Virus record (IMG/VR): IMGVR_UViG_2667527595_000023
DNA length: 9,470 nucleotides
DNA from: a virus
Taxonomy: Monodnaviria; Loebvirae; Hofneiviricota; Faserviricetes; Tubulavirales
Direction: 5' to 3' (one strand)
Below, piece after piece: positions 4,685-5,018 of the stretch (positions are counted from its first letter, which is position 1; each line of letters starts with the position of its first letter). The notes beneath the pieces were generated by a model. The model was not told the origin of the DNA. It did no database searches and worked only from the letters and a program-made list of their open reading frames with translations. The position numbers and the translations under genes are program-made.

Positions 4685-4885
4685 TCACATTGCCTTTTTT
4701 TTCTTAAGTTCTTCCTGACTTACCATATCTATTGCTGCGTCTTTTGCGTAGTGATCTATCATGTAAGACAGTACTTCGGTCCATTTTATGCTCCTTCCTA
4801 TCTTTTGACTTGCATCAATAGCTAATCTTTCTAGCTTTAGATACTTCTCGTTTGGCACGTTATAACTCTTTCTTTTTTCAGCCAT
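4685..4885 (-). CDS. Ribbon-helix-helix (CopG/Arc/MetJ-like) transcriptional regulator, 66 aa, divergent from the replication module
   Basis: N-terminal pattern KSYNVPNEKYLKLERLA (beta strand then helix A) followed by GRSIKWTEVLSYMIDHY (helix B). AAGGGGG ribosome-binding site 6-7 nt before the ATG. Confidence 0.6.
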   Translation of the reverse strand: MAEKRKSYNVPNEKYLKLERLAIDASQKIGRSIKWTEVLSYMIDHYAKDAAIDMVSQEELKKKKAM

Positions 4886-5018
4886 TATTTAGCCCCCTTT
4901 TTTGTATTTAGCCATCATGTACTCTAGAGCACTTGAGCAAATGTTGTTAATACATCTTGTGTTCATGATGTTTTTTGAGTATGTTCTTTTTTGTCTTTCA
5001 TCATGAGGACATGAGGTC
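4886..5018. promoter_or_regulatory. Divergent promoter/operator region between the repressor and the replication module
   Basis: Three CATCATG motifs (4913-4919, 4964-4970 inverted, 4999-5005). Direct repeat TATTTAGCC at 4886-4894 and 4905-4913. Candidate sigma70 promoter: -35 TTGTGT 4957-4962, 17-bp spacer, -10 TATGTT 4980-4985. Confidence 0.35.

Follow-up and report, generated by a model that had tools for sequence, protein, structure and literature searches.

A predicted ribbon-helix-helix repressor and 8-bp-phased box arrays as a probable replication-control and immunity cassette of an Escherichia coli filamentous prophage

How a filamentous prophage holds its replication genes in check is the question raised by a 9,470-bp stretch of viral DNA (IMG/VR record IMGVR_UViG_2667527595_000023, hereafter the window), which represents a dif-integrated filamentous (inovirus) prophage of Escherichia coli. 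In the window, a gene for a 66-amino-acid (66-aa) protein of the phrog_2503 family (4685-4885, minus strand) lies back to back with a replication operon on the plus strand. The operon starts with orf82 (5019-5267, plus strand), which encodes an 82-aa protein of phrog_3104, listed in PHROG as function unknown, and whose stop codon overlaps the start of the replication initiator gene (rep; 5260-7260, plus strand). The initiator, the presumed target of regulation, is of the Phage_GPA/HUH nickase type (Pfam PF05840, E=8e-49; phrog_91; 'replication endonuclease' in RefSeq). A preliminary description of this DNA had proposed that the 66-aa protein is a ribbon-helix-helix (RHH) repressor transcribed divergently from the replication genes, across a 133-bp intergenic region (4886-5018) carrying operator-like repeats. 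The gene, its strand, the divergent arrangement and the intergenic region, with the next plus-strand gene starting at 5019, were all found as described. We consider it probable that the 66-aa protein is a dimeric RHH transcription factor, acting as regulatory and immunity protein and repressing through three arrays of short boxes at an 8-bp phase.

The 66-aa open reading frame (ORF) is a real gene under strong purifying selection, as judged from its copy at the related locus L002. The two copies differ at 22 nucleotides, all 22 of which are synonymous and none non-synonymous, corresponding to approximately 0.6 differences per synonymous site. Five E. coli genomes carry the identical protein inside a different filamentous prophage, and among 5426 complete E. 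coli genomes 6 contain the cassette. The protein matches phrog_2503 (E=7e-27), which PHROG annotates as function unknown; nothing reached threshold in Pfam, NCBIfam or PADLOC, and the family has no Pfam or NCBIfam name. Close relatives numbered 11 in a set of 5.8 billion proteins, and a profile search of 1.84 billion representatives recovered 101 family clusters at 50% identity. No published description of this RHH family was found in the literature searched, the coverage of which did not extend to subscription journals.

The assignment of the family to the RHH fold is well supported by structure models and profile comparisons. The AlphaFold2 (AF2) monomer model of the 66-aa protein shows an extended N-terminus followed by two helices (residues 12-29 and 35-65). 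Because this two-helix monomer was uninformative, we modelled a natural tandem-duplicated homologue of the family, P0048 (129 aa), which gave the order strand-helix-helix-strand-helix-helix (predicted local distance difference test 82.5, predicted template modelling score 0.73). Structural matches of this model included single-chain Arc, AvtR, SvtR and TraY, and hhalign placed residues K4-V10 of the window protein on the modelled strand of P0048 with a probability of 96.5%. The family unit is thus beta-alpha-alpha with an N-terminal strand. In the window protein the ribbon is K4-R5-K6-S7-Y8-N9-V10-P11, with R, S and N at ribbon positions 2, 4 and 6, followed by helix A (12-29), a G30-R31-S32 turn and helix B (35-65). 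The basic start and the KR-x-polar-x-polar order of KRKSYNVP, together with the G-R-S turn, resemble the pattern of ParG (KRVNVNFD), CopG (KRLTITLS) and MetJ (KKITVSIP) (PMC3413123). Sub-threshold matches pointed in the same direction: ParG in Pfam for 5 of 64 family members (best E 0.019), RHH_3 for one of the 64, and, among PDB profiles, ParG 1p94 (E 0.047) and TTHA0139 (E 0.19). A PDB search with another family profile gave no matches, a comparison by hhalign of the family profile with single Arc and CopG sequences was not significant, and the 66-aa protein matched no helix-turn-helix (HTH) family.

We next consider the DNA between the two transcription units. The three CATCATG motifs that had been reported there, one of them inverted, are located at 4913 (+), 4964 (-) and 4999 (+), and of the four copies in the whole window, where 1.48 are expected, three are in this region. 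In comparison with L002, only 6 of the 104 positions in the core (4915-5018) differ, against approximately 0.6 differences per synonymous site in the adjacent gene, and all six fall between three blocks that are 100% identical (4915-4937, 4955-4977 and 4999-5018), with the identity of the last continuing from 4999 to 5022 in the alignment of window and L002. The conserved core starts at TCATG, because the first CATCATG reads CCTCATG in L002. The idea of operator-like repeats was therefore borne out, in that conserved elements including CATCATG are present. The fate of the second repeat that had been proposed, a direct repeat of TATTTAGCC overlapping the promoter, was different. Both copies exist (4886-4894 and 4905-4913), but they fall where the 66-aa gene has its leader and ribosome-binding region rather than on the best promoter hexamers, and this leader (4886-4914) is 52% different in L002, a neutral-like divergence. 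In dinucleotide shuffles of the 133-bp region, a direct repeat of at least 9 nt appeared in 8.9%, and some 7-mer occurred at least three times in 6.6%, or in 1.6% without homopolymer-run words. TATTTAGCC was therefore rejected as an operator, its divergence being high and its length within chance, and it is probably without function. Two other candidates were also set aside. A 43-aa ORF (4889-5020, minus strand) was rejected as a gene owing to L002 deletions of 2 nt (4898-4899) and 1 nt (4986) and no family match, and three related 16-mers, one pair of which matches at just 10 of 16 positions, were dropped as the repeat unit in favour of box arrays with an 8-bp period.

A CWWG tetramer box (W being A or T), repeated at an 8-bp phase in three arrays that fall within the blocks identical in L002, is a likelier functional unit than the CATCATG 7-mer itself. 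All eight CWWG tetramers in 4880-5030 form three exactly 8-bp-spaced groups, at 4916/4924/4932, 4956/4964 and 5002/5010/5018. Array A (4916-4939; CATGTACT CTAGAGCA CTTGAGCA), proximal to the RHH gene, contains an imperfect palindrome, TCATGTACTCT|AGAGCACTTGA, and overlaps the -10 of a candidate sigma-70 promoter for this gene (4921-4950, minus strand; -35 TTAACA at 4950-4945, 18-nt spacer, -10 TAGAGT at 4926-4921; 9 of 12 matches in the promoter scan). The central array B (4956-4971; CTTGTGTT CATGATGT, with TCATGAACACAAGA on the opposite strand) overlaps the -35 and the spacer of a candidate rep-operon promoter identified by eye (4957-4985, plus strand; -35 TTGTGT at 4957-4962, 17-nt spacer, -10 TATGTT at 4980-4985). 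The distal array C (5002-5025; CATGAGGA CATGAGGT CATGCAAA) spans the orf82 leader, its Shine-Dalgarno sequence (GAGG) and its start codon. The candidate hexamers of both promoters are unchanged in L002.

This overlap raises an alternative explanation, in which the repeats are not protein sites at all: the conserved blocks would be promoter hexamers, a T-tract and a ribosome-binding site, the recurrence of CATCATG and CWWG would be chance or a mutational by-product, and the RHH protein would act elsewhere. The modest outcome of the 7-mer shuffles taken alone (1.6-6.6%) agrees with it, as does the content of the blocks, since block C holds the Shine-Dalgarno sequence and start codon and blocks A and B hold the candidate hexamers. 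However, the blocks are 20-23 bp long and exceed the length of a hexamer, and all five matches to CWWG-N4-CWWG in the window are within 4916-5021 (about 2.5 expected window-wide). This explanation becomes very unlikely when the relatives of the cassette are considered, in which the same phasing recurs beside diverged alleles in unrelated sequences and the box sequence shifts along with the ribbon.

We collected 20 further loci and, for every distinct allele, subjected 135 bp of upstream DNA to autocorrelation analysis. Peaks at lags of 8 and 16 were observed in nearly all of these upstream regions, and the lag-8 and lag-16 signal was significant in the window too. The combined lag-8/lag-16 P value was at most 0.001 in five of the ten intact regions and in L003, and 0.01-0.075 in the remaining five of the ten; the upstream region of phage If1, which is disrupted by an insertion sequence (IS) and was used as a negative control, gave no lag signal (P=0.45). 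At L014, where the protein is 58% identical and the initiator is different, arrays are found at -119/-111, -82/-74/-66 and -50/-42 from the start codon, distances similar to those in the window (-82/-74 and -50/-42/-34 relative to the RHH start codon), and the 11-mer TCATGAACACA is common to L014 and the central array of the window at -82/-74. The box sequences also differ among alleles with different ribbons: CATGAG-type boxes accompany the ribbon KRxxYNV (window, L014 and L015), ATGCA-type boxes accompany KRTTMAIV (Dickeya and Yersinia, L005 and L008), and TTAAC boxes at 3992/4000 and 4044/4052/4060 accompany KRKAIAIT (L003). Box and ribbon thus appear to change together, a qualitative covariation of the kind predicted for an RHH protein and its operator.

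Comparisons of gene context further showed that the RHH gene and its intergenic region travel as a unit. L002 and L004 carry the same RHH protein, with an intergenic core changed at 6 of 104 positions, beside an unrelated Rep_trans initiator, and prophages of Dickeya and Yersinia enterocolitica carry approximately 50%-identical homologues divergent from a G2P-type rep across 135 bp, so that RHH homologues face three unrelated initiator families (Phage_GPA, Rep_trans and G2P). Conversely, L003 (E. coli AST205) shares its Rep and its small membrane protein with the window, and between these two genes are two other members of the RHH family and an unrelated intergenic region. These two paralogues are arranged in tandem on the minus strand, one of 60 aa proximal to rep (3793-3975; unannotated in RefSeq), in whose upstream region the phased TTAAC boxes lie, and the other at 3509-3721. 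Since the L002 and L004 comparisons reveal one cassette on different backbones and the L003 comparison reveals one backbone with different cassettes, the gene plus its intergenic region behaves, by these alignments, as a portable and exchangeable cassette. The conserved blocks cannot be Rep-specific origin sequences, because the cis region is common to phages with unrelated initiators; they track the RHH protein and possibly also the orf82 product. An orf82 homologue of 63 aa (46% identical) has the same position in L002, before the Rep_trans gene, and a 64-aa look-alike ORF in L015 was judged by eye to be a candidate relative. The gene accompanies the RHH cassette and is absent where the RHH homologue faces a G2P-type rep; searches of PDB and PADLOC with the orf82 protein gave no matches.

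The same comparisons bear on a second alternative, namely that the RHH protein serves as an accessory factor at the origin or in replication, or as an activator, comparable to TraY in the F relaxosome. It would then bind and bend DNA close to the phage origin or promoter and so aid the HUH initiator or stimulate transcription instead of repressing. In one database a homologue is called 'Relaxosome protein TraY', and TraY was also among the structural matches; the RHH gene always adjoins a rolling-circle initiator gene, and in If1-type phages it is within the large intergenic region upstream of gene II. A partnership with one nickase or origin is, however, difficult to reconcile with the occurrence of the cassette beside three unrelated initiators. 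The arrays over promoter hexamers and a ribosome-binding site have the usual layout of repression, and the replacement of one allele by another on a single backbone is characteristic of immunity regions. TraY itself is a relaxosome accessory protein at oriT; the window protein consists of one RHH unit and has no conjugation genes nearby, and the sequence identity is 15%. We regard a TraY-like role as unlikely.

Repression by the RHH protein could operate as follows. Dimers would insert the N-terminal beta-ribbon (KRKSYNVP) into the major groove at the 4-bp CWWG boxes, 8 bp from centre to centre, and would assemble cooperatively along arrays A, B and C, as ParG and MetJ do. Occupation of array B together with array C would block the rightward promoter and the leader of the orf82-rep operon, leading to low rolling-circle replication and virion production and hence to copy-number control, and incoming phages of the same type would be shut down (homo-immunity). 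Array A over the regulator's own -10 would confer negative autoregulation. The cassette would move between phages whose Rep proteins are unrelated, and would give way to different alleles of the family that bring their own boxes. The predicted dimerisation and sequence-specific binding to DNA find indirect support in the conserved, phased boxes.

A third alternative restricts the protein to its own side of the intergenic region, such that it would autoregulate only a leftward operon containing an antitoxin/toxin-like or superinfection-exclusion gene and would have no role at the rep promoter. A gene for a hydrophobic 51-aa protein (4466-4621, minus strand) does lie 63 bp downstream of the RHH gene on the same strand, between it and the phage attachment site (attP), and is possibly co-transcribed with it. 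By eye, a 46-aa hydrophobic ORF has the same place in L004 despite diverged DNA, and a near-identical 51-aa ORF is present in L003; the gene is unannotated in the RefSeq records examined. RHH antitoxins commonly autoregulate, which also favours this alternative, and a Fic-domain gene follows the Yersinia homologue. Against it, the downstream gene varies among relatives (a 138-aa gene in Dickeya, Fic in Yersinia, an RHH paralogue in L003), whereas the position divergent from rep is constant; arrays B and C are on the rep side, 70-130 bp upstream of the RHH start; and no toxin or defence family was detected, the 51-aa protein having no match in Pfam, NCBIfam or PADLOC. A recognised co-operonic toxin immediately downstream, as expected for a type II RHH antitoxin, was not found. 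We therefore consider control of the leftward operon alone quite improbable as the function of the RHH protein. The 51-aa protein could be a superinfection-exclusion or membrane effector, and the slot downstream of the RHH homologues looks like a variable cargo position. In the three Yersinia enterocolitica loci L008-L010, the Fic-domain gene (6314-7048) starts 110 bp downstream of the RHH homologue.

Phage If1 (L011, NC_001954.1), which we take to be a non-integrating phage, also encodes a member of the family. An unannotated RHH homologue with 50% identity (tblastn E=1e-10) is located at 5119-5322 on the minus strand, in a region that the record labels 'major intergenic region' (4834-6039). 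Directly upstream of its start codon is an apparent IS200/IS605-type element that parts the RHH gene from gene II. The If1 'ORF348' (6040-7086, plus strand) matches OrfB_IS605/TnpB, and a 147-aa ORF (5388-5831, minus strand) was identified by eye as TnpA of the same element. Similarity between If1 and an If1-like metagenomic phage breaks exactly at the RHH ATG.

Taken together, these observations allow a more general reading, which we offer tentatively and as one joint proposal. In this proposal, phrog_2503 would be an unrecognised RHH family, lacking a Pfam entry, that supplies filamentous phages of the Enterobacterales with a general, portable cassette for immunity and copy control and is compatible with three or more unrelated replication initiators. 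In three arrays with a constant 8-bp phase, each allele would recognise a 4-bp box of its own, and its specificity would be predictable, and perhaps re-engineerable, from the ribbon. In If1, the copy would have been severed from its control region by the IS200/IS605 element, which might explain constitutive production by this laboratory phage.

Several points weigh against repression by the 66-aa protein through the arrays. The evidence for its fold is indirect and taken from the tandem homologue: its own monomer model has no assigned strand, Foldseek of this model against PDB found nothing below E=1, and the profile check that the preliminary description had suggested brought sub-threshold matches to RHH proteins but no curated RHH family (Pfam RHH_1, RHH_3, Arc, ParG and others) at threshold. 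On the DNA side, the CWWG pattern with its 8-bp period was noticed post hoc, which inflates its nominal significance and leaves the relatives as the independent test, and just two diverged copies of this exact cassette were available for footprinting. The rightward promoter matches the consensus weakly and was not picked up by the promoter scan at its threshold, and part of the block conservation could be due to promoter hexamers and the ribosome-binding site rather than to operators. Binding and repression by the 66-aa protein are predictions from sequence, and no induction route is visible, in that neither a LexA box in the intergenic region nor an obvious cleavable domain in the protein was seen. 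The LexA box is absent because the region contains no CTG or CAG.

For these reasons the proposed function must be worded with care. The term 'lysogeny switch', after the 'lysogeny/replication switch' of the preliminary description, is probably too strong; what gene position and comparative data suggest is narrower, because the phage has no integrase but a CTX-type XerCD attP, the region has no LexA box and a homologue occurs in If1. A repressor of replication and production, and an immunity determinant, is a safer description.

We compared the cassette with known regulators. In CTXphi, the repressor gene rstR and the intergenic region ig-2 form an exchangeable, allele-specific immunity cassette on similar backbones; RstR is an HTH protein, and the promoter PrstA is also controlled by LexA. 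The window resembles this system in three respects: a small gene for a repressor, here a predicted one, transcribed away from the replication operon in a filamentous phage integrated at dif; the exchangeability of the cassette; and a CTX-type attP of two inverted dif-like sites. It differs from RstR in that the window protein is an RHH protein with no sequence relation to that HTH repressor, and from PrstA in lacking a LexA box and in having 8-bp-phased tetramer arrays as its likely operators; the two are thus positional and functional analogues and not homologues. The position and immunity role of RstR-like genes have been summarised, and an analogy noted for YpfPhi (PMC4266046).

A different likeness is to CopG of pMV158, in that both regulators are RHH repressors of about 45-66 aa, that of the window being a predicted one, with a rolling-circle initiator as target. 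CopG (RepA) limits the HUH rolling-circle initiator and autoregulates, with copG co-transcribed with repB from one promoter. In contrast, the window regulator is divergent from rep and would use phased-array operators, and it is therefore not of the CopG type; in the hhalign comparison with CopG, the ribbon and helix A were aligned in register at a probability of 4%, which is not significant. The CopG operator is a 13-bp pseudosymmetric element containing TGCA motifs, whereas dimers of ParG (TP228) coat arrays of degenerate 4-bp boxes (ACTC) separated by 4-bp spacers in direct or inverted orientation, and MetJ binds tandem 8-bp met-boxes (PMC3413123). The 4-bp boxes at an 8-bp phase in the window share this ParG/MetJ-like architecture as a DNA pattern only, and ParG was the top sub-threshold sequence match. 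The window has, however, no ParF ATPase gene and no centromere context, and PF09274 was below the cut-off, so that membership in the ParG family is not supported; the spacers are not uniformly AT-rich, helix A is about four residues longer, and no corepressor of the S-adenosylmethionine type is implied. P22 Arc and Mnt and the archaeal-virus proteins AvtR and SvtR likewise are virus-encoded RHH transcriptional repressors, but they belong to other viruses and regulate other functions, and hhalign found no similarity to Arc.

The cassette is thus probably a switch of a familiar kind whose protein comes from a family not described before. It introduces no new principle, as there are well-known examples both of repressor-operator cassettes with divergent layout and of RHH proteins that repress rolling-circle initiators. 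The regulation of filamentous prophages beyond Vibrio (RstR) and Pseudomonas (Pf4r) is, by comparison, poorly described, and for the RstR-like gene of YpfPhi the regulatory role still awaits experimental demonstration (PMC4266046). If the proposal is true, it would supply a fold and a concrete operator model for a family found in inoviruses of E. coli, Yersinia, Dickeya, Pectobacterium, Xenorhabdus and Vibrio, would explain the quiet state and self-exclusion of tandem dif prophages, which can affect host fitness, and would identify missing annotations in If1 and in RefSeq E. coli genomes. The compact, orthogonal pairs of RHH protein and box would also be possible synthetic repressors.

The remainder of the window fits a dif-integrated filamentous phage, with genes for a Zot/pI-like protein (1116-2318), a secretin (3105-4313) and a major-coat-like protein (8031-8291). 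In E. coli TD225-C4, a prophage copy 97.8% identical to the window lies directly after hipBA, presumably the chromosomal dif locus, with at least one more copy in tandem. Against the phage collection, megablast gave no match for the region and no close relative for the whole window, and an Rfam scan of the whole window also gave no match. The phage contains no integrase gene; a CTXphi-type attachment region is present instead (4359-4462), with two inverted dif-like sites flanking a GC-rich hairpin (AGTGCGCATAA-TGTGACACGCG-TTATGTTGAAA and, on the opposite strand, AGTGCGCACAA-TGACG-TTATGTATAAA). As single-stranded DNA this region folds into a forked hairpin (dG -40.2 kcal/mol, z -10). Its sequence is the same across phages of differing backbone, bar one or two base changes, and the first base at the chromosomal junction is G, matching the host dif. 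Because an integrase is absent, XerCD integration of the single-stranded phage form is likely.

Repeats were observed at two other places. Between the Zot/pI-like and secretin genes (2332-3066), a 339-bp unit is present in 2.2 tandem copies with 96% matches, and the corresponding gap in the TD225-C4 prophage measures only approximately 215 bp. Arrays with periods of 39 bp and 78 bp (49-243 and 9019-9289) code on the plus strand for Gly/Ser-rich linkers, like those of pIII-type adsorption proteins. Because such arrays are present at both ends of the window, the linker gene seems to span the window boundary, which would fit a circular genome or a tandem prophage, and the long minus-strand 'PEPE' ORFs are reverse-frame shadows of this gene.

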